Sequence record: PP534475.1
Origin: Escherichia phage YJin-2024a
Length of the DNA stretch: 64,000 nt
Strand: one strand, 5' to 3'
Both the position numbers and the translations under genes were made by a program. This document shows positions 3 through 64,000 of the stretch, piece by piece. The notes beneath the pieces were generated by a model. It searched no databases and had not been told where the DNA came from. It saw nothing but the letters and a program-made list of their open reading frames with translations. Numbering within the stretch: position 1 is the stretch's first letter; each line of letters begins with the position of its first letter.

Positions 3-90
3 TGGTGGGGAAAGATGGAGTCGAACCACCCGAGTCGCAATGACAACTGATTTACAGTCAGCTCTGCTACCACTTACAGAATATTTCCCC
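3..90 (-). tRNA. tRNA-Tyr (anticodon GTA), class II with long variable arm
   Basis: Reverse complement folds with acceptor GGGGAAA/TTTCCCC, anticodon stem GCTGA/TCAGT, loop CTGTAAA, T-arm GGTGG-TTCGACT-CCATC, encoded CCA; resembles E. coli tRNA-Tyr from memory. Confidence 0.7.
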
Positions 91-221
91 ATATTTAGAA
101 GTATTCAAAAAATTCTAATTTAAACACTTTTAAATATGTTTCCAAATTAGATAACTATTATACCAAGTTTTAAGGCACTGAGCAAGTCAAATTTTAAAGA
201 ACTTGCTCAGTGCTGTATTAG

Positions 222-497
222 TTAGTCGAACTTAGGAGCGACAGTTAAGGAGAACGGAAGTTCGAAAACTTCTTCGCCCTCATCACTAACAGTAATTACA
301 CGACCTTTAAGTTCAGACATTGAAATATCAATATCAGCTTTTGCATCTGGAGCCATGCCAGCTTCAACACATTTAGCTTTAATTTCCGGCAGAAGTTCTA
401 CATCGTAGAAATAAAGCCATTCAATCTCACCTTCCCAGCCTTCCCAGGATTTACAGATTGCACTTTCAATACCAGTTGCTATAACACGATTTTGCAT
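222..497 (-). CDS. hypothetical protein
   Basis: 91-aa ORF downstream of a T5-type early promoter (approx 505-540, minus strand). Confidence 0.45.
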   Translation of the reverse strand: MQNRVIATGIESAICKSWEGWEGEIEWLYFYDVELLPEIKAKCVEAGMAPDAKADIDISMSELKGRVITVSDEGEEVFELPFSLTVAPKFD

Positions 498-587
498 TCG
501 TTAACTCCTTCATCAATTTATATAACTATTATACCAGAAATTTAAAGCAAAAGGCAAGTACATTTTTAAAAATTCTGTTTGGAGGAG

Positions 588-794
588 CTAAACTCCAGAT
601 TCTTCAGCCAAGTCTAGACTAATAAGAGATATAGCCATAATTGCCGCTCCATGTTCTTTTTCTCCAGTCTCTTTAGCTAGAGTTATAATGTCAAGAAATT
701 GCTTATGAAAATCTGCAACCTCTTGAGTTATACCTGCCTCAGCAATCATACCTTTAAGCATGAAACGTTGTGCGGTAATTTCAGGATTAGCCAT
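588..794 (-). CDS. hypothetical protein
   Basis: 68-aa ORF; start overlaps stop of upstream small ORF (ATGGCTAA). Confidence 0.45.
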   Translation of the reverse strand: MANPEITAQRFMLKGMIAEAGITQEVADFHKQFLDIITLAKETGEKEHGAAIMAISLISLDLAEESGV

Positions 795-954
795 GTTGTT
801 TCTCCAGTTTCATCTTTAATAGTCTACAAATAAAATCAATGTCTTCATCCGTGCCTAGATCTCTATCTTCAAGAGTTGCCTTGAAGTTTTTAGTCAATTC
901 CATAAGGATGACTTCCCTAGAACGACGTGTTGGCGGAGGTGGATGTCTATACAT
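787..954 (-). CDS. small Pro-rich hypothetical protein (55 aa)
   Basis: ORF below track threshold; stop overlaps the next start, suggesting translational coupling. Confidence 0.3.
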   Translation of the reverse strand: MYRHPPPPTRRSREVILMELTKNFKATLEDRDLGTDEDIDFICRLLKMKLEKQHG

Positions 955-969
955 CTTATTTCCTTAATT

Positions 970-1046
970 TGGTAGGGGTGGTGGGATTCGAACCCACAAA
1001 ACCTGAATTTTAAGTCCAGTACCTATGCCAATTCGATTACACCCCC
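970..1046 (-). tRNA. tRNA, probable anticodon TAA (identity uncertain)
   Basis: Acceptor GGGGGTG/CACCCCT, anticodon stem CTGGA/TTCAG with loop CTTAAAA, T-arm GTGGG-TTCGAAT-CCCAC, encoded CCA; D-stem pairs poorly and variable arm is short for Leu. Confidence 0.5.
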
Positions 1047-1147
1047 GTGTAATCAGTTTATTAGTTGATACATATTATAGCCTAGTGAAAATCCTACTAC
1101 TAGTCCCACAAACCAACCAATATAATAATCTTTTAGTTTCACAGGTA

Positions 1148-1333
1148 TTATCCTCGTTCAATATCTAGGGAAATACCACAGTTAGGATTAATACCTGTAC
1201 CACTGCAATTTGGGCAAACCCAGATATTGCAAAAAGTATCTCCTGCTTCTGCATCAGAACTTTCACCAATTCCCCTACACTCAGGGCAGACACATTCTTC
1301 TAGCTCTTGCTTGAGTTCTTGAAACTTAGACAT
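1148..1333 (-). CDS. small Cys-rich zinc-ribbon protein
   Basis: 61 aa with CPEC..CNIWVCPNC..C spacing typical of a zinc ribbon. Confidence 0.45.
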   Translation of the reverse strand: MSKFQELKQELEECVCPECRGIGESSDAEAGDTFCNIWVCPNCSGTGINPNCGISLDIERG

Positions 1334-1341
1334 ATAGTCTC

Positions 1342-1743
1342 CTAATTAAGTTTTTCAAAACGACCTAGAGAATCTCTAGTCATCTTATTTAAGATTTTTC
1401 CCATATTCTGCTTTCTTGTGAATAATTCTAGGTTAGGTAAAGCATTATTAGACTTATCATCATCTTTGTGCTCTATTTCATAGCCTTCCGGTATTTCACC
1501 GTTGAAAGCCATCCATACGAGTCTGTGCACATATTCATTTTTACCTAGTCCCTTATTGCAAATTTTCACCTGAAAATATCCAGATTTACCATTGCAACGT
1601 GGAGATAATACCTTTCCTTTTATAGTTCTAGTGTACTCGCTATATTGATTTCGTTGTGTTATTATTCTATCCTTAGTTTCTATTGTACCATTTAAGTGTA
1701 CAATTAAAATAACACCAAAGTACTCAAATTCAACCTTTTCCAT
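1342..1743 (-). CDS. HNH homing endonuclease
   Basis: HRLVW...IEHKDDDKSNNALPNLELFTRKQN matches the HNH motif; sits inside the tRNA cluster. Confidence 0.6.
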   Translation of the reverse strand: MEKVEFEYFGVILIVHLNGTIETKDRIITQRNQYSEYTRTIKGKVLSPRCNGKSGYFQVKICNKGLGKNEYVHRLVWMAFNGEIPEGYEIEHKDDDKSNNALPNLELFTRKQNMGKILNKMTRDSLGRFEKLN

Positions 1744-1757
1744 ACGTAATACCTAAT

Positions 1758-1832
1758 TGGTGGGTCGGAGGAGAATCTAACTCCTACTCATTAGCTTATG
1801 AGGCCACCGCTTTAACTTTAAGCTACCGACCC
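1758..1832 (-). tRNA. tRNA-like RNA with non-canonical anticodon arm
   Basis: Good acceptor GGGTCGG/CCGACCC, D-arm GCTT-AAAGTTA-AAGC, T-arm AGGAG-TTAGATT-CTCCT and CCA, but the only stable stem in the anticodon region (CTCAT/ATGAG) encloses a 6-nt loop. Confidence 0.4.
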
Positions 1833-1838
1833 TATGTT

Positions 1839-1932
1839 TGGAGGAAGATGCCAGACTCGAACTGGCACACCGTGTTTCCACAGTTACTGGCTGTTTAGCA
1901 AACAGCTCCCTTACCTTTAGGGTTAATCTTCC
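1839..1932 (-). tRNA. tRNA-Ser (anticodon GCT), class II
   Basis: Acceptor GGAAGAT/ATCTTCC, anticodon stem GCTGT/ACAGC with loop TTGCTAA, long variable arm, T-arm GCCAG-TTCGAGT-CTGGC. Confidence 0.65.
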
Positions 1933-1953
1933 AAATTTATAAGATATATTATA

Positions 1954-2466
1954 TTAGAAATTTAGCTTCATAGCAAGAAAATTTTTCAAGTTTTCGGTAG
2001 ACATCTCATCCACATCTATAGGAGAAACAAAGCCGTTTAATTTTCTAGCAAATTTTTCACCTGCAGGGTCATTATCCCCGACAGCTACCAATTTAAAAGG
2101 TAGTAATTTCAGTTGCTTTAATAACGCAACTGCCTTAAATACAGATTCAGCAATCAATACTACTTTTTCATCTCCATTGAGAGTTTCTAGTCCCCATACA
2201 CACTGGGTAGTAGAATGAGTAAAGTATTTAGCTTCAAAGGGGCACTTACCATGACCTTTTGGAGCAGAAGGATTATAAGTTTGATAGCCCCTCAACATCC
2301 CAGAGAAGTCATATAACGGGACTGTTAGCCATCCTTCCGGACTTAACCAGCAATGATATTTATCTGTATCAAATCCTCTAGATAAGAGGTGCTGTGTTAG
2401 CTCATCAACATTCATATTTGGTTCCTCTCTCAAATTTATAGATATATTATACAGAGAATTTAGCAT
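1954..2466 (-). CDS. hypothetical protein with Toprim-like motifs
   Basis: VVLIAESVFKA ... VAVGDNDPAGEKFARKL resembles the Toprim E and DxD signature. Confidence 0.4.
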   Translation of the reverse strand: MLNSLYNISINLREEPNMNVDELTQHLLSRGFDTDKYHCWLSPEGWLTVPLYDFSGMLRGYQTYNPSAPKGHGKCPFEAKYFTHSTTQCVWGLETLNGDEKVVLIAESVFKAVALLKQLKLLPFKLVAVGDNDPAGEKFARKLNGFVSPIDVDEMSTENLKNFLAMKLNF

Positions 2467-2590
2467 TCAAGCAATCAAATTTTTTAACTTTTTAGAGAAA
2501 AATCATAGGGCACTTAAGGATAGCAGATAAGTGGTGAGGACCAAAATTTGTGACCCCACTAAAAATCCGGGGGTAATTTTTAAAGACCCC

Positions 2591-2619
2591 TTGACATTTT
2601 CGCTGGGGTAGTGTAAAGT
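2591..2619 (+). promoter_or_regulatory. sigma70-type promoter TTGACA-17-TAAAGT
   Basis: Consensus -35, 17-nt spacer, near-consensus -10; AGGAGG RBS 8 nt before ATG at 2682. Confidence 0.6.
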
Positions 2620-2681
2620 ATATGTTATGGATGAGTGATCAAAGAGACACACATTTTCTATATACTAGGAGGTGTCAAAAA

Positions 2682-3674
2682 ATGACAGAAGAAGTAGCTA
2701 AGAGTCCTGAGACCGTCGCTAGCGTTGCAGCAGAACTGCACCGTCACGAGGAATCAGATAAGAAAAAGTGGGAGAAGGTCAGAGCCTACGAAGAGAAACA
2801 TCGTGAACACGATGAAGATGATGAAGAAGATGACGATGATGAGTATTGTCATAAATATGGAAAACGTAAAATGCAAGAACCAGTAAACGTATTCACTAGT
2901 GGCTTCCCTGGCCTAATGGGTGGTTACCCAGCAAACGCAGGTGCTTTCGGTGGTGAAGGTATGGGACTATTCGGAGCTATCCTAATCGGTGCTCTATTAA
3001 CAGGCGGATTCGGTGGTTTCGGTGGATTCGGTGGACGTGGTGTAGTTGGTGAAGGTACCGCAGTTGATGCAGTACTTCAGAACCAAGATACCGCTAGTAT
3101 TCTAGCAGCTATTAACACTACTCGTACAGAGGCTAACCAGGGTACTGGAGCTGTTTTAAGCGCAGTTAATAATGGTTTTAGCCAGACATCCCAAAACCAG
3201 AGCCGTGATACTCAGTCTGTACTAACTACGATCTATGGTACAGGTGCTAATCTGTCTAATCAGATCTGCCAGGAAACTCGCAACGTTATTCAGGGTCAGT
3301 TCGATCTTTCTCGCCAGATTGATCAAGCTTTCGCAGCTAATCAGATAGCTCGTGCACAAGATAAGTTTGATTCTGCACAGATCGCTTTCCAGCAGACTTT
3401 ACAAACTAATAACCAGTTTGCCGCTGTTCAGGCTCAGATGTGTGCTAACCAGAACTCTCTGGAACGTCAGATCGCTGAATGTTGCTGTGAACTTCAGACT
3501 GCGATTGCTGGTGTAACTACTGCGCGTATCCAGGATGAGTTAGACGCGTGTCGTCTACGTGAAGCAATCGCTGCGGGTAGCGGTGCTAACGGTCAGGTAA
3601 TTAATCAAATCGCTTTAAGTCTTGGTGCTATCACTCAGACTCTGGCTGGTCTGCAGGCTAAACTGCCGGCTTAA
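2682..3674 (+). CDS. membrane protein: acidic N-terminus, glycine-zipper segment, Gln/Asn/Thr-rich Cys-containing C-terminus
   Basis: Start moved to ATG 2682 because of the RBS; GGFGGFGGFGG hydrophobic Gly-zipper; DEDDEEDDDDE acidic tract; no recognisable family. Confidence 0.6.
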   Translation: MTEEVAKSPETVASVAAELHRHEESDKKKWEKVRAYEEKHREHDEDDEEDDDDEYCHKYGKRKMQEPVNVFTSGFPGLMGGYPANAGAFGGEGMGLFGAILIGALLTGGFGGFGGFGGRGVVGEGTAVDAVLQNQDTASILAAINTTRTEANQGTGAVLSAVNNGFSQTSQNQSRDTQSVLTTIYGTGANLSNQICQETRNVIQGQFDLSRQIDQAFAANQIARAQDKFDSAQIAFQQTLQTNNQFAAVQAQMCANQNSLERQIAECCCELQTAIAGVTTARIQDELDACRLREAIAAGSGANGQVINQIALSLGAITQTLAGLQAKLPA

Positions 3675-3695
3675 TATTAAGGGGAGGAGCCCATT

Positions 3696-4112
3696 ATGAG
3701 TAAATATGGTTTTGTAAATAACGGACTTAATCAAAGTATGGGCTCCCAGCAGCCCGTTCCGGGTCTGGATAACCCCTACTTACAACAGTTGCAACAGCGT
3801 TTAGCAGAAGCGCAACAGATGCAGCAACAACTCCAGCAAAACCCTGGAAGTGTAAGTCCTATGCAAATGATGCAGCAAATGAGCGGGCAGTCGCAAATGC
3901 CTCAACAAATGCAGCAACAGATGCCGCAGCAGCAAGTTCAGCAACAAACCCAACAACCGCAGGTTTCTGCGGAGGGACAGGCAGTACTAGCCCTTTTCGA
4001 AGACTTCGCAAAGACAGAGGATGGGAAACAGCTTGTATCACTTATGGGTAAGTTTAATAGCTTCTGCCAAAGCCAAGTTGCAAAAGCTCAAAATGGTGGT
4101 AATAACTCCTAA
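3696..4112 (+). CDS. Gln-rich low-complexity protein
   Basis: 138 aa with PQQMQQQMPQQQVQQQTQQPQ tract; GGAGG RBS upstream. Confidence 0.55.
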   Translation: MSKYGFVNNGLNQSMGSQQPVPGLDNPYLQQLQQRLAEAQQMQQQLQQNPGSVSPMQMMQQMSGQSQMPQQMQQQMPQQQVQQQTQQPQVSAEGQAVLALFEDFAKTEDGKQLVSLMGKFNSFCQSQVAKAQNGGNNS

Positions 4113-4121
4113 GGAGAAATT

Positions 4122-4316
4122 ATGTGTTGCAGAAAATCTGTTTCGTGCTGCCCAATGCCTGTAGCACGTTGTTGCTCTCCAGCAATGTTTACGCAAATAC
4201 CGGCGTTCAATCCGTTTGCCTTTAAGCCTACTCTTATCCTGCCCCCTAGAGTAGATTTTCAGTCAAGATTGGCCTCCCGTATGGGTGGTTGCTGTACACC
4301 GAGAGTGTGGTTCTAA
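4122..4316 (+). CDS. small Cys-rich hypothetical protein
   Basis: 64 aa with several CC pairs; last ORF before the terminator; may not be coding. Confidence 0.3.
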   Translation: MCCRKSVSCCPMPVARCCSPAMFTQIPAFNPFAFKPTLILPPRVDFQSRLASRMGGCCTPRVWF

Positions 4317-4329
4317 ACCAAAAACAAAA

Positions 4330-4362
4330 GCCCCTGCCGAAAGGTAAGGGGCTTTTTCTTTT
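4330..4362 (+). terminator. intrinsic terminator
   Basis: GCCCCT...AGGGGC hairpin with inner GAAA loop followed by TTTTTCTTTT. Confidence 0.7.
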
Positions 4363-4365
4363 GCC

Positions 4366-4408
4366 TTAAATACAGAAAAGCCCTGCGCTCTCCAGGAAAC
4401 GCAGGGCT
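4366..4408 (-). terminator. intrinsic terminator for the convergent SPFH gene
   Basis: 8-bp GC-rich hairpin GCCCTGCG/CGCAGGGC followed on the minus strand by TTTTCTGTATTT. Confidence 0.65.
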
Positions 4409-4432
4409 TACTTCAGATGTTACATGCGGGTA

Positions 4433-5380
4433 TTATTTATTACGCATATCCATAATCATTTGGCCATCGTAACCAGTTCCCACTACTGTTTGCGGTACAC
4501 CACCTTGGTATTTCTGAGCACGAATCATTTCGACTTCCAGTTGTTTCCAACGAATCATCTCAGGAGTAATGGTACGTTGCAGTGCGGCGTTAGCTTCAGC
4601 TTCTTTCTTAGCTGCATACAGTTTAGCATCTGCATCACGTTCGTTAGCAATAGCTTGGTTATTACGAGCTTCGCGATCTGCTTCTGCTTGTTTAACCTTC
4701 TGCTGTGCTTCTTGTTCAACACGAGCCAACTCAGCTTTTGCAGCATTAACTTGCTCTTCACGAACTTTGGTATTCTGTACCTGTTCCATGATTACTGGAG
4801 GCAGAGTAATATCCTGAAGGAATACCTGCTTAACTGTGTAACCATATGGGCGTGCATACTCTTCAACTTCTTGTTGAATTGCAGTTTGCAATTGAGCCTG
4901 AATTTTAGCATCAAACAAATCTTGTGCTTTAGGTACAGACTTACCAAACTCACGAATAGTAGACAGTAATTTTTCAGTTACATACTTGTCTAGCGCCTGA
5001 TCCTGAGTACCTGCGTTAATGCGGTTAATCGGTGCCTTAGAACCATCAAACTGCAACATAACAGTCAGGTCAACAGTGGATTTAAACTTATCCTGACTAG
5101 GAACCTGAAGTTTATCTAATTTTAGAGCAATATCTTTAGTACTAAAAGTATCGAAAGAAGCAAAAGGATTTACAATATGAAAGCCGGGTAATACTGGGCT
5201 AGGGTCAACTTTACCCAGGAAAGTCTGGGTTTTAACAGTACCGTCTTGAACAACAGTATAGGAGTTAAGGGCCAGAACTAAACCTACCAAACCAACTGCA
5301 GCACCAATACCCCAACGTTTGATATTACGCATCAATTTTTGCTCATAAGTCAGTTCTTTAGTGTTTTTAGTAGCAAACAT
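4433..5380 (-). CDS. SPFH/band-7 (prohibitin/HflKC-like) membrane protein
   Basis: N-terminal TM helix, SPFH-like core, long Ala/Glu/Gln-rich coiled coil (AKAELARVEQEAQQKVKQAEADREARNNQ). Confidence 0.65.
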   Translation of the reverse strand: MFATKNTKELTYEQKLMRNIKRWGIGAAVGLVGLVLALNSYTVVQDGTVKTQTFLGKVDPSPVLPGFHIVNPFASFDTFSTKDIALKLDKLQVPSQDKFKSTVDLTVMLQFDGSKAPINRINAGTQDQALDKYVTEKLLSTIREFGKSVPKAQDLFDAKIQAQLQTAIQQEVEEYARPYGYTVKQVFLQDITLPPVIMEQVQNTKVREEQVNAAKAELARVEQEAQQKVKQAEADREARNNQAIANERDADAKLYAAKKEAEANAALQRTITPEMIRWKQLEVEMIRAQKYQGGVPQTVVGTGYDGQMIMDMRNK

Positions 5381-5414
5381 ATATTTCCTTTGTTTTAGTT
5401 ACAGTTAATAAAAT

Positions 5415-5489
5415 TGGCCGAGGTGACAGGATTCGAACCTGCATAAAGGAATTTAGAAGACTCCTGCCTCTCCCTTAGACTACACCCCG
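5415..5489 (-). tRNA. tRNA-Arg (anticodon TCT)
   Basis: Acceptor CGGGGTG/CACCTCG, D-arm GTCT-AAGGGAG-AGGC, anticodon stem GGAGT/ATTCC with loop CTTCTAA, T-arm GCAGG-TTCGAAT-CCTGT, CCA. Confidence 0.7.
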
Positions 5490-60960: not shown

Positions 60961-61002
60961 TTTTTCCCAATAAAAAAGGCTCTGGGCAAATCACCCAGAG
61001 CC
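60961..61002 (-). terminator. hairpin terminator/attenuator upstream of the tape-measure gene
   Basis: 9-bp hairpin GGCTCTGGG/CCCAGAGCC followed on the minus strand by TTTTTATTGGG. Confidence 0.55.
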
Positions 61003-61037: not shown

Positions 61038-61493
61038 TTACCGTGCGCGAGATTTAGCATGTGGCTTAACGTTAGGAATCCTCCCGTTTTGCGGTTTATG
61101 CTTCTCAGCACGTTTACGTGCAGCATCTACAGCTTTAGCATCAAATATATTGATAATGTGTAGAACAAATTCTTTTTCTATAGGATCAGTAATCCCATAA
61201 ATATCAAATAAAACACCTAGAGCAGCTTTATCTTTACCTATAAAAATAGGAAAGTCACCTGGTATGAAACAATCAATTAGACTGTTATAAATATTCATAC
61301 TAATAGATACAATAGGTGGAAAATCTTCGAGTTCAACAGGCATAGCCTTAGGATCAGGTTCTATACCCATTGACTCGCAAAGTATTAAATATTGTTGTTT
61401 AGTCATTTTAGACGCTGAGCTTTTAATACATTTGTCTGCAAAATCAGCAACAGCATCTAGGAGTTCTTTACGCTTTTGGGCTACGAAAAGTGT
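61038..61493 (-). CDS. tail assembly chaperone, downstream (+1) frame
   Basis: Frame open from 61493 and overlapping the end of the upstream chaperone ORF by 26 nt; ATG at 61406. Confidence 0.45.
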   Translation of the reverse strand, partial: TLFVAQKRKELLDAVADFADKCIKSSASKMTKQQYLILCESMGIEPDPKAMPVELEDFPPIVSISMNIYNSLIDCFIPGDFPIFIGKDKAALGVLFDIYGITDPIEKEFVLHIINIFDAKAVDAARKRAEKHKPQNGRIPNVKPHAKSRAR

Positions 61494-61872
61494 CTAAGTG
61501 GAACACTGTCTGGTTGATCCAAGAATCAAACGCAGCAGAGTTCTGCATGAGCATTACAGCATTATCGCGGCTAAAAGGAACTTCAGTAGCAGGATCAGCA
61601 TCTGTTTCAATCAGCATCAGTTTTTCAACGTCACCTACAGTCAAACCAGTCCAACCTTTAATAGCTGCGTCAACAAAGGCTTCAATGAACTTATCGTCAT
61701 CCTGTACCTGAATCAAAGTACCGTTAACCCATTCATCGCGTTTAGCAGAGGAGATAACACGTTTAGAGGTAGCACGAGACATATAGTTAAGTTCTAATTT
61801 AAAGTTCGGCATACCTGGGTAGGAAAGAGTAATAGTACGAGTATCAAGAGTAATATCTTTTAAATTAATCAT
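61468..61872 (-). CDS. tail assembly chaperone (G-like)
   Basis: 134-aa acidic ORF upstream of the tape-measure gene. Confidence 0.5.
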   Translation of the reverse strand: MINLKDITLDTRTITLSYPGMPNFKLELNYMSRATSKRVISSAKRDEWVNGTLIQVQDDDKFIEAFVDAAIKGWTGLTVGDVEKLMLIETDADPATEVPFSRDNAVMLMQNSAAFDSWINQTVFHLDTFRSPKA

Positions 61873-62768
61873 TTTTTAATTTCTCCAAAGAAATCTATTC
61901 TCACTGGGTCTGAAGAAGCAGTAGGTATAATATCCCACTCGACTCTATACACATCTGAGAACTCTAGGCGTTTTGTAATACGTGCTGAAGGAAAATCTAT
62001 AGAAATATTATTATTTCTTATCGTTAAAGGTATATCTGTCTCCGGTTCTATATTATAAACCATATCTCCTGCAAAACGTTTTAAGTAGTACAGAGAAATG
62101 GTTGCCGAAGCATTCATTTCAGTTACATAAGCTCTTTTATTATTATAAATTTTATTTATATCAAAAACACTCTTATCCTCTCTCCAGGAGCACTGCTGTT
62201 GGAAAGATAAAGAGGCAGAAATAAGACCAGGTAAGATGCTACCATTAGTAGAAGCTACTACTGGGCTATAAGACATTACTTCACCCTGTATAATAGAAGC
62301 TGCTTCTCTATATATAGATACTTCGGAAAATTTCCCCGATTCAATACCAACATTAAGAATTGGTATATTCTTATCTAAAGAAAAATCTACTGTAGATACA
62401 TAGCAGTTTTCAAAATATACACAGTTATTATCTTTATTTACTATATAGATATTGAACATAATAGGTTCAATATTACTACTATATAGTGGGAGTAAGAAAG
62501 TATTACCTTTTCTATCAAAACCTAACCATTCAAAGAAGTTAGCCTCAGTAAGAGTATTACTGAAATTTACTGCTAGAGAGATAGAAGAGGGGGTTTGAGC
62601 ATTTATAATAGAGTCTGCATAGTTAGTTCTACGATGAACAGTCCTACGAAGAGTCTTGAATTCCTCGTAGGAAGTCTGTATATCATAGTTTGATAGGGCA
62701 TCAAAATGAAATGCCCTACCATCATACTCAACTATAACTTTTGACTCTCTCATTAGAGAGTAATACAT
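61869..62768 (-). CDS. tail structural protein
   Basis: 299-aa ORF between tail-tube and chaperone genes. Confidence 0.45.
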   Translation of the reverse strand: MYYSLMRESKVIVEYDGRAFHFDALSNYDIQTSYEEFKTLRRTVHRRTNYADSIINAQTPSSISLAVNFSNTLTEANFFEWLGFDRKGNTFLLPLYSSNIEPIMFNIYIVNKDNNCVYFENCYVSTVDFSLDKNIPILNVGIESGKFSEVSIYREAASIIQGEVMSYSPVVASTNGSILPGLISASLSFQQQCSWREDKSVFDINKIYNNKRAYVTEMNASATISLYYLKRFAGDMVYNIEPETDIPLTIRNNNISIDFPSARITKRLEFSDVYRVEWDIIPTASSDPVRIDFFGEIKK

Positions 62769-62772
62769 TTAA

Positions 62773-64000
62773 TTAGCCACCTGCTGTTACAGTAATGCTC
62801 TTAGTACCTTCTACACCAGAACTGTCTTTAGCTACAGCTTTCACAGTAACTTCTCCAGTCTTAGTAGTATCTGCAGTTAATAGACCAGACTCTGGATCAA
62901 TTGTAGCTGCATCACCACTAGAAATAGACCAAGGTACGGCACTATTAGTAGCATCTGGCGGAGTTACTTCAACAGACATCTGTAGAGTATTGCTATTCTC
63001 CACTGAAGTGACATTACCAGCGGATTTAACTGTGATTGATTCAACTAGTTTTGGGGGAGTTTTAGCGCCATCTCCTGTAGCAATCAGATTAGCCACAGTG
63101 GTTTTAGTATACTTGCTAGAGAAACCAAGATAACCTTCATCACCAGTATCCAGATCTGTAGGAATAGCTTTAAACTCTACTGAAGTACCAAGTACATCAT
63201 CAGTTTCAATAGTAGGAATATTAACGTGTGCTTGTTTAGCTACCAGAATAGCCGCAGGACGTTCTTCATCATATTCACCACCAAGTACTAGAGCAATTTC
63301 GAAGCGGTTAACTACCTTAAGAGTTTTAATTAGATCTTTATATAGCTCCATAGATCCTAGAGCTTTATCATTAAGGTAAGCTGTCAGAGAACCAGTTAGT
63401 TCAAACGCACCAGTAAATGAACCGATTGGAATATTTACACGGGACATAATATTTGGGGTTAGGTACGTGATGTTATTATTAATGGTGAAAGTACCCCCAG
63501 TAATAGGGATATCATATGCCTTATCAGAATCCATATCCTTAATTTTCAGGATAGTCAGTTTGTTCTTAATATAAGAACTCTGAATAGTCATATAAGTTTC
63601 ATCATCAATACCTACCACATCTGGATCAAATGGCTGAGCATCCAGAGGAATAAGCTGATTACCATTACCAGACCAAGTTACACGACCAATATCTTCGATA
63701 TCAACGTTAACTTCTGCCTGATTAATCTGACAGGAATCGATATAACTCCATGCTTTATCAGTCAGAATATAAATATGTAACATTGCTAACTCGTGATAAG
63801 AGTTATCTTTGAAGTTAACCATAAAGTTAGCTTCGTTATTGTGTGCCCCTGTATTACCTTCTAAGTTAATAGCTTTACCACTAGAAAGTGCATGCCATAA
63901 CATATAGTCAGGAACAATTTGTTTGCTAGTAGTTTTGTCTTTATATGGCAGGATATAAGTAGAGAAACTCCACTCAGCTGCGTTTAAAGAGTCGTTAAAA
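62773..64000 (-). CDS. major tail tube protein with C-terminal Ig-like domain (T5 pb6-like); 5' end beyond window
   Basis: Frame stays open to the window edge; C-terminal Big_2-like segment. Confidence 0.65.
   Translation of the reverse strand, partial: FNDSLNAAEWSFSTYILPYKDKTTSKQIVPDYMLWHALSSGKAINLEGNTGAHNNEANFMVNFKDNSYHELAMLHIYILTDKAWSYIDSCQINQAEVNVDIEDIGRVTWSGNGNQLIPLDAQPFDPDVVGIDDETYMTIQSSYIKNKLTILKIKDMDSDKAYDIPITGGTFTINNNITYLTPNIMSRVNIPIGSFTGAFELTGSLTAYLNDKALGSMELYKDLIKTLKVVNRFEIALVLGGEYDEERPAAILVAKQAHVNIPTIETDDVLGTSVEFKAIPTDLDTGDEGYLGFSSKYTKTTVANLIATGDGAKTPPKLVESITVKSAGNVTSVENSNTLQMSVEVTPPDATNSAVPWSISSGDAATIDPESGLLTADTTKTGEVTVKAVAKDSSGVEGTKSITVTAGG

Follow-up and report, generated by a model that had tools for sequence, protein, structure and literature searches.

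The frameshift that yields the tail assembly chaperones G and GT is described as a conserved trait of long-tailed phages (Levin 1993; Xu 2004, 2013 and 2014; summarised in PMC5009743), and the shift that serves these genes is −1, −2 or +1 depending on the phage (Atkins et al. 2016, PMC5009743). Here we analyzed a candidate chaperone locus of Escherichia phage YJin-2024a (PP534475.1), which occupies positions 61038–61872 on the minus strand of a 64,000-nt window, the whole stretch of DNA that was examined, and which comprises two overlapping open reading frames, ORF1 and ORF2. The best-known counterpart is lambda gpG/gpGT. As in lambda, the pair stands between the genes for the tail tube and for the tape measure, a short G-like ORF is overlapped at its 3' end by a T ORF without a conserved start of its own, and a G protein and a G–T fusion are predicted as products. 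The predicted structure of ORF1, an AlphaFold2 model built with 10 homologues (mean predicted local distance difference test score, pLDDT, 83), may resemble the tail assembly chaperone fold; a Foldseek search against the PDB gave no significant match. In contrast to lambda, the T-like frame here is +1 and has no usable X_XXY_YYZ heptamer, a single P-site tRNA slip is proposed, and similarity of the ORFs to lambda G or T is not detectable at the sequence level.

Other described systems share single elements with this arrangement. Phage Mu (−2) and the haloarchaeal myovirus HSTV-2 (+1) likewise express G/GT by shifts other than −1 (PMC5009743), but they are unrelated phages with different shift sites, likened here by description. 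Escherichia coli prfB, which encodes release factor 2 (RF2), shifts by +1 through re-pairing of the P-site tRNA on an overlapping codon that is cognate or near-cognate, as proposed here for UUU to UUC; however, prfB needs a stop codon occupying the A site and an upstream stimulator resembling a Shine–Dalgarno (SD) sequence, whereas at this locus CGU, a sense codon in common use, occupies the A site and SD-like elements are not conserved. According to PMC2790909, which cites the argI site UUU_UAU, UUU followed by a pyrimidine is prone to +1 shifting in E. coli without pausing. Such sites have the same slippery codon and a pyrimidine at +4 and need no pause signal, but they were described as translational errors or engineered sequences and not as conserved programmed sites serving a needed protein. 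The orthologues T5.143 and T5.142 of phage T5 (YP_006971.1 and YP_006970.1) are 96.8% identical over the hypothetical fusion and have the identical site ACT TTT CGT AGC and the same 26-nt overlap. They differ in how they have been treated: they are annotated as two separate chaperones, and a 2026 paper that mentions neither T5.143 nor frameshifting examined T5.142, the trigger of the Schlafen defence RorSlfn5, as a free protein of 122 aa (PMC13056530). From the comparisons below, ORF1 and ORF2 are probably a tail-assembly-chaperone pair working like lambda G/GT, in which a +1 shift at UUU CGU would generate the fusion.

The overlapping frames and the UUU CGN dicodon

The sequence-only reading held that the downstream frame is open from 61493, overlaps the last 26 nt of ORF1 and stands in a +1 rather than the usual −1 relationship to it, and reading of the minus strand confirms this exactly. 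The distance 61872 − 61406 is 466, or 1 modulo 3, which places ORF2 in the +1 frame of ORF1. The 3' end of ORF1 reads ...GAC ACT TTT CGT AGC CCA AAA GCG TAA in the 0 frame. The +1 frame is closed by a TAG at 61496–61494 and is then open for 151 codons, from 61493 (ACA CTT TTC GTA GCC CAA AAG CGT AAA ...) via ATG 61406 to 61038, and the −1 frame at the end of ORF1 closes after 7 codons. A formal −1 heptamer in register, C_CCA_AAA (61480–61474, minus strand), was rejected as coincidental, since its frame is this 7-codon dead end and T5 and S133 have C_TCA_AAA.

In all, 90 distinct loci were compared, namely 13 annotated relatives together with loci from IMG/VR searches; 59 of them are of the +1 type and 31 of a −1 type. 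The +1-type loci span T5, Epseptimavirus, Sugarland, Erwinia KEY, Proteus, four Vibrio genera and metagenomic lineages. In all 13 annotated relatives (among them T5, Klebsiella Sugarland, Erwinia KEY, Proteus PL1 and the four Vibrio genera, the last at ~31–36% identity), ORF2 is +1 to ORF1 with an overlap of 14–122 nt, and the only nucleotide string that these overlaps share is TTT CG(T/A), which encodes Phe-Arg in the ORF1 frame. Comparison with related phages had been named beforehand as a check, and it extends the observation to every +1-type locus: an in-frame TTT CGN lies in the overlap in 59 of 59, within 17 different 12-nt contexts. Since the overlap is present in all of them, down to ~30% protein identity, it is not a chance feature of one sequence. 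The Arg codon is CGT in 46 loci, CGA in 8 and CGC in 5, never CGG or AGR, and the Phe codon is never TTC. TTTCG is also the sole invariant block in a nucleotide alignment of 16 lineages of the +1 type. Given the codon usage of the window (TTT 0.57 of Phe codons, CGN 0.66 of Arg codons), the naive probability that all 17 contexts carry TTT CGN is ~6e-8, which makes the significance look greater than it is, because the lineages are not fully independent. Within the long ORFs of the window, in-frame TTT CGN occurs 5 times against the 11.1 expected on codon frequencies, which may be a weak hint, on weak statistics, that a shift-prone dicodon is avoided.

The ORF1 stop lies 0 to ~20 codons after CGN across lineages, and in two of them, one being Vibrio phage D350, it follows directly (TTT CGT TAA), so that the shift there must occur at or before CGT.

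In the proposed mechanism, most ribosomes would read ORF1 to its stop and release a 134-aa G-like chaperone, while a minority would shift by +1 at UUU CGU (61488–61483). The P-site tRNA-Phe (anticodon GAA) would exchange its G:U wobble pairing on UUU (61488–61486) for Watson–Crick re-pairing on UUC (61487–61485); the next codon would be GUA (61484–61482), and reading would continue in the +1 frame through the gap between the ORFs and ORF2. The product would be a 277-aa GT-like fusion consisting of ORF1 residues 1–129 and 148 further residues. A slip at UUU_C predicts the junction ...HLDTFVAQK, which would be represented by the AspN peptide DTFVAQKRKELL and the tryptic peptide DNAVMLMQNSAAFDSWINQTVFHLDTFVAQK. 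By analogy with lambda, the G part may bind the tape-measure protein and the T part may recruit the tail tube protein. The occurrence and efficiency of the shift, its mechanism by tRNA slippage and the functions of the two domains are what we infer here. Across lineages, the A-site codon after the slip is GUA, GUG, GUU, GAA, GAG or GCG, and the C at +4 is invariant. Schwartz and Curran reportedly studied UUU/C-CGG/U dicodons in 1997.

The same frame could be entered in other ways. The sequence-only reading had proposed a programmed +1/−2 frameshift making a fusion; the +1 half is upheld, with UUU_C (61488–61485) lying inside the 61468–61493 region it had flagged, and the −2 half is not supported, for want of conserved re-pairing. 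A −2 shift would also enter this frame, and phage Mu employs one (PMC5009743), but the codon available for re-pairing upstream of UUU is CUU, ACU, CCU, GGU or AUU depending on the lineage. A second candidate within the overlap, AAA_G at 61476–61473, would let tRNA-Lys re-pair in the window; it is confined to the closest relatives, however, with AAA_C in Sugarland, and ORF1 ends before any such site in KEY, Pontus, D350, SJ1 and L111. Slippage at the stop codon is not general either, as the stop lies at such variable distances from CGN. A fusion made by a −2 shift or at any of these other sites is therefore very improbable. Transcriptional slippage on a T run, giving a frameshifted mRNA, is more improbable still, to the point of being scarcely credible: the window has four T (CTTTTC), but most lineages have three only (CCTTTC, GGTTTC, ACTTTC), and homopolymers that support slippage by RNA polymerase are far longer than 3–4 T.

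A sister clade with the −1 arrangement

The 31 −1-type loci, all of them metagenomic (IMG/VR L042–L066, L070–L080 and L128–L137, on contigs of up to ~102 kb), provide a natural control. Their G and T proteins are homologous to those of the +1 type (33–40% identity), the junction Phe is the same, and the T frame begins at the same residue. They differ in that the homologous T ORF lies in the −1 frame behind canonical heptamers, and that the Phe codon and the codon after it are free to vary. A canonical slippery heptamer stands in register in 29 of the 31 loci (G_GGA_AAC in 16, A_AAU_UUU in 13), the remaining two having U_UUU only, and the heptamer ends at or just before this invariant junction Phe codon. 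Fusions built at the −1 sites align from the junction onward with the +1 frame of the window, for example LFEEQLIATRDQLLNYLQNIAVGMTKDQYF with LFVAQKRKELLDAVADFADKCIKSSASKMTKQQYL, and fusions of the +1 type align end to end with the −1-type relatives. The maintenance of heptamers in 29 of 31 loci indicates that the G–T fusion is a selected product in this protein family.

The clade also separates constraint on the protein from constraint on the nucleotides. Of the loci with G_GGA_AAC, 11 encode the Phe by TTC and 5 by TTT, followed by AGC, TCG, TCC or CAG, which indicates that neither protein requires UUU or CGN. That UUU CGN does not vary within the +1 clade is accordingly best read as a nucleotide-level constraint. 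In a rough neighbour-joining tree, the −1 clade forms one group nested among the +1 lineages; this topology suggests a single switch between the +1 and −1 modes, with a direction that is not secure. When cultured members of the −1 clade were sought by tblastn, none exceeded 36% identity, the closest isolates in the collection searched standing at ~35%.

The gap, the start of ORF2 and the weighing of the products

Between the ORF1 stop and ATG 61406 lies a 61-nt gap (61407–61467) that GenBank relatives annotate as intergenic. Among 31 close relatives, its variable sites are distributed over the three +1-frame codon positions as 5/1/15 (p = 6e-4), resembling the same count for the coding bodies of ORF2 (18/12/73) and ORF1 (26/5/87). 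The gap is never interrupted by a stop in the +1 frame, its peptide pattern is kept across divergent lineages, and it aligns with the segment that follows the heptamer in the −1-type relatives. Judged by this variation, purifying selection acts in the +1 frame on the 27 codons that precede ATG 61406. No ATG, GTG or TTG occurs in the +1 frame between 61493 and 61406; together with the codon-position bias, this indicates that the gap is coding and can be reached only from ORF1.

At ATG 61406 itself the SD duplex is a negligible −0.1 kcal/mol, against −6.4 for ORF1 and a median of −5.75 over 54 gene starts of the window; the alternative ATG 61370 reaches −1.8 kcal/mol. Among the 16 divergent +1 lineages, the codon in the 61406 column is ATG in nine; in six others it is ATA, GTT, TTT, CTA, ATT and ATT, with ATA in Sugarland, and Pontus, whose column the pattern search missed, aligns an F there. 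Across the position of this Met, the motif x-T-K-x-x-Y-L-x-x-C-E is nevertheless conserved. A local hairpin at 61459–61409 on the minus strand (9-bp outer stem, −20.3 kcal/mol, z −2.6) ends its 3' arm 3 nt before ATG 61406 and could mask internal initiation; close relatives show no covariation in it, and it is not kept in distant relatives. The annotated start of ORF2 homologues is inconsistent among records: most use the equivalent of this Met (Met-1), the OSYSP RefSeq record uses Met-13 (ATG 61370), and NR01 omits the protein. In Erwinia KEY the start is annotated as a TTG inside the overlap, and SaI_NFG_5581 carries an extra 33-aa coding sequence (CDS).

These features bear on whether ORF1 and ORF2 give only two independent proteins, with ORF2 initiated at ATG 61406 or 61370, possibly by re-initiation after the ORF1 stop 62 nt upstream, and no fusion. 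Several observations speak for such a pair and weigh against a programmed shift. All 13 GenBank/RefSeq records inspected annotate separate CDSs or omit ORF2, and none has a joined CDS. In nine of the 16 +1 lineages, and in most of those of the −1 type, the 61406 column holds an ATG. When T5.142 is expressed by itself it is soluble, folds, and binds and triggers RorSlfn5, so a free T protein is possible (PMC13056530). According to the Sugarland announcement, which cites Zivanovic 2014, no frameshift signal is predicted in T5; Sugarland, too, is reported to lack the frameshift. The fusion in this phage is a predicted protein. The usual stimulators were not found either: among the window's 715 Arg codons CGU is the most frequent (336), leaving no hungry-codon pause; the 16-lineage alignment holds no conserved SD-like or purine-rich element upstream of the site, where the window has CACUUAGACACU; and RNAalifold assigns 0 pairs to the same alignment. 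With no pause, SD-like element or structure, the efficiency of shifting may be low. Five other in-frame TTT CGN dicodons, moreover, occur in long ORFs of the window. Rfam had no match at E <= 1 within 61300–61650. The tRNA genes of the window, part of a T5-type cluster (3–5489, minus strand), comprise Tyr-GTA, Leu-TAA, Met-CAT, Ser-GCT and Arg-TCT; they include no special tRNA-Phe or tRNA-Arg(CGN), and none reads UUU or CGN.

Two separate proteins would nonetheless have to arise without an SD sequence at either ATG, from a column that holds non-start codons in other lineages while the motif across it is conserved, and behind 27 selected codons that have no start. They would also leave unexplained both the invariance of UUU CGN and the heptamers that the −1 relatives place at the same spot. 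We consider this outcome improbable. On the same grounds, the independent start at ATG 61406 that the sequence-only reading offered as its other option is not borne out, as the site has no functional-looking ribosome binding site and a non-start codon replaces it in at least six of 16 lineages. A combination of products, in which this phage makes the fusion by a +1 shift and in addition a free T from ATG 61406, is somewhat less remote but still unlikely. The ATG is conserved within the T5/Epseptimavirus group and free T5.142 is functional as a trigger; set against this are the weak SD, the hairpin ending just upstream, the lack of family-wide conservation of the ATG, and the fact that lambda T is not made separately. 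Frameshifting is favoured over independent initiation by the invariance of UUU CGN, the coding selection on the gap, the absence of a start codon or ribosome binding site, and the homology of the −1 relatives. A wider and more tentative proposal combines three points: that UUU_CGN may be a minimal programmed +1 signal without a stop codon, hungry codon, SD-like element or RNA structure, that it would be conserved in the cultured Demerecviridae sampled, and that in infected cells T5.142 may occur chiefly or exclusively as the C-terminal domain of a 277-aa fusion. Taken jointly, these are possible, with a lower probability than the frameshift itself, and if true they would alter the view both of T5 tail assembly and of the RorSlfn5 trigger.

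Gene context, family profiles and significance

The window segment is 98–99% identical to genomes of Tequintavirus (T5-like, Demerecviridae), and 444 phage records match it at at least 80%. Near-identical copies also occur under unlikely hosts, in a 10-kb record labelled 'Listeria phage LM 4-11-1' (98.6%) and as a partial 'Enterococcus faecalis' protein (P0148, 97%); both are probably contamination or mislabelling. The features of the locus are listed in Table 1. On the minus strand, the order is the pb6-like major tail protein, the p140 baseplate tube protein, ORF1, ORF2, a terminator-like hairpin and the tape-measure gene, and the claim that the chaperone ORFs occupy the canonical position before the tape-measure gene is thus correct, with p140 (PF23779) on one side and the 1226-aa tape-measure protein on the other. 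The site in T5 homologous to the hairpin is annotated as a putative rho-independent terminator; T5 has its endonuclease gene T5.141 after this hairpin, and the window lacks T5.141. The pb6-like major tail ORF (62773–63903, minus strand) has a listed ATG without an SD (+0.7 kcal/mol). The gene has ~465 aa in relatives, and its actual start is probably located past the window's end.

Table 1. Coordinates of the chaperone locus and adjacent features in the 64,000-nt window
Feature	Position	Strand	Basis or remark
ORF1, G-like tail assembly (tape-measure) chaperone, 134 aa, 0 frame	61872..61468	-	Stop TAA 61470-61468
Overlap of the ORF1 frame with the open +1 frame, 26 nt	61493..61468	-	Minus-strand reading
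Proposed +1 shift site UUU CGU	61488..61483	-	TTT CGN in 59/59 +1-type loci
Predicted fusion CDS, 277 aa (129 + 148)	join(61872..61486, 61484..61038), C61485 skipped	-	+1 slip at UUU_C
+1-frame codons upstream of ATG 61406, VAQKRKELLDAVADFADKCIKSSASK	61484..61407	-	Reachable only by frameshift from ORF1; no start codon
ORF2, T5.142 homologue, T-like domain, 122 aa from ATG 61406	61406..61038	-	ORF list; PHROG matches
Baseplate tube protein p140 homologue	61869..62768	-	Pfam PF23779, E 1.5e-139
Terminator-like hairpin, after ORF2 and before the tape-measure gene	61002..60978	-	11-bp stem, 7 GC pairs, then T-run
Tape-measure protein gene, pb2-like, 1226 aa	60954..57274	-	Relatives annotated tail length tape measure protein

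Profile searches place both ORFs in one family. PHROG 313 ("tail assembly chaperone", 258 positions) matches ORF1 over profile positions 12–139 (E 1e-33) and ORF2 over positions 170–258 (E 3.2e-17), and PHROG 3914 matches ORF2 (E 1.6e-56). The fusion that was scanned was a hypothetical 277-aa version joined at AAA_G, 5 codons downstream of UUU_C, which differs from the UUU_C-joined fusion by 4 junction residues; its residues 1–262 align with positions 12–258 of PHROG 313 in one stretch (182.9 bits). That the profile spans the hypothetical fusion without a break indicates that it describes a fused protein. Searches of PDB sequences gave no match. A search for homologous proteins with the hypothetical fusion as query returned none, compared with 12 matches for ORF1 alone, and a single-sequence AlphaFold2 model of the fusion was useless (pLDDT 35.5). 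No natural single-ORF G–T fusion was found with the 151-aa extended T frame among 1.84 billion representative sequences, where the matches were T-only calls of 90–150 aa, nor was a single-frame fusion found by tblastn in 50,697 phage records, with two pieces in every listed record. Two long matches to the T domain, P0006 (1455 aa) and P0147 (554 aa), were discarded as spurious, being tandem-repeat sequences that score through many short repeated stretches.

Shifts other than −1 were already known for the G/GT pair; the feature that the comparison supports as new is an apparent family-wide +1 site, UUU_CGN, accompanied by a −1 sister clade. No description of a chaperone frameshift in T5-like phages was found in the literature searched, whose coverage is incomplete. 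The tail of the model siphophage T5 has been studied intensively in its structure and assembly, with the chaperones annotated as two separate proteins. If the proposal is true, a joined CDS would be missing from ~900 matching phage records, nearly all of them T5-like or relatives from Vibrio, Klebsiella and Proteus, and the G/GT rule of long-tailed phages would be extended to T5 by an unusual route. UUU_CGN would be added to the few natural +1 recoding sites of bacteria, as one that acts without the usual stimulators. A switch between +1 and −1 recoding would be documented within one protein family, in which the paired clades form a clean natural experiment on the evolutionary exchange of recoding signals. 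Furthermore, T5.142, the trigger of RorSlfn5, may physiologically be a domain of a scarce fusion protein, which would bear on how infection is sensed.

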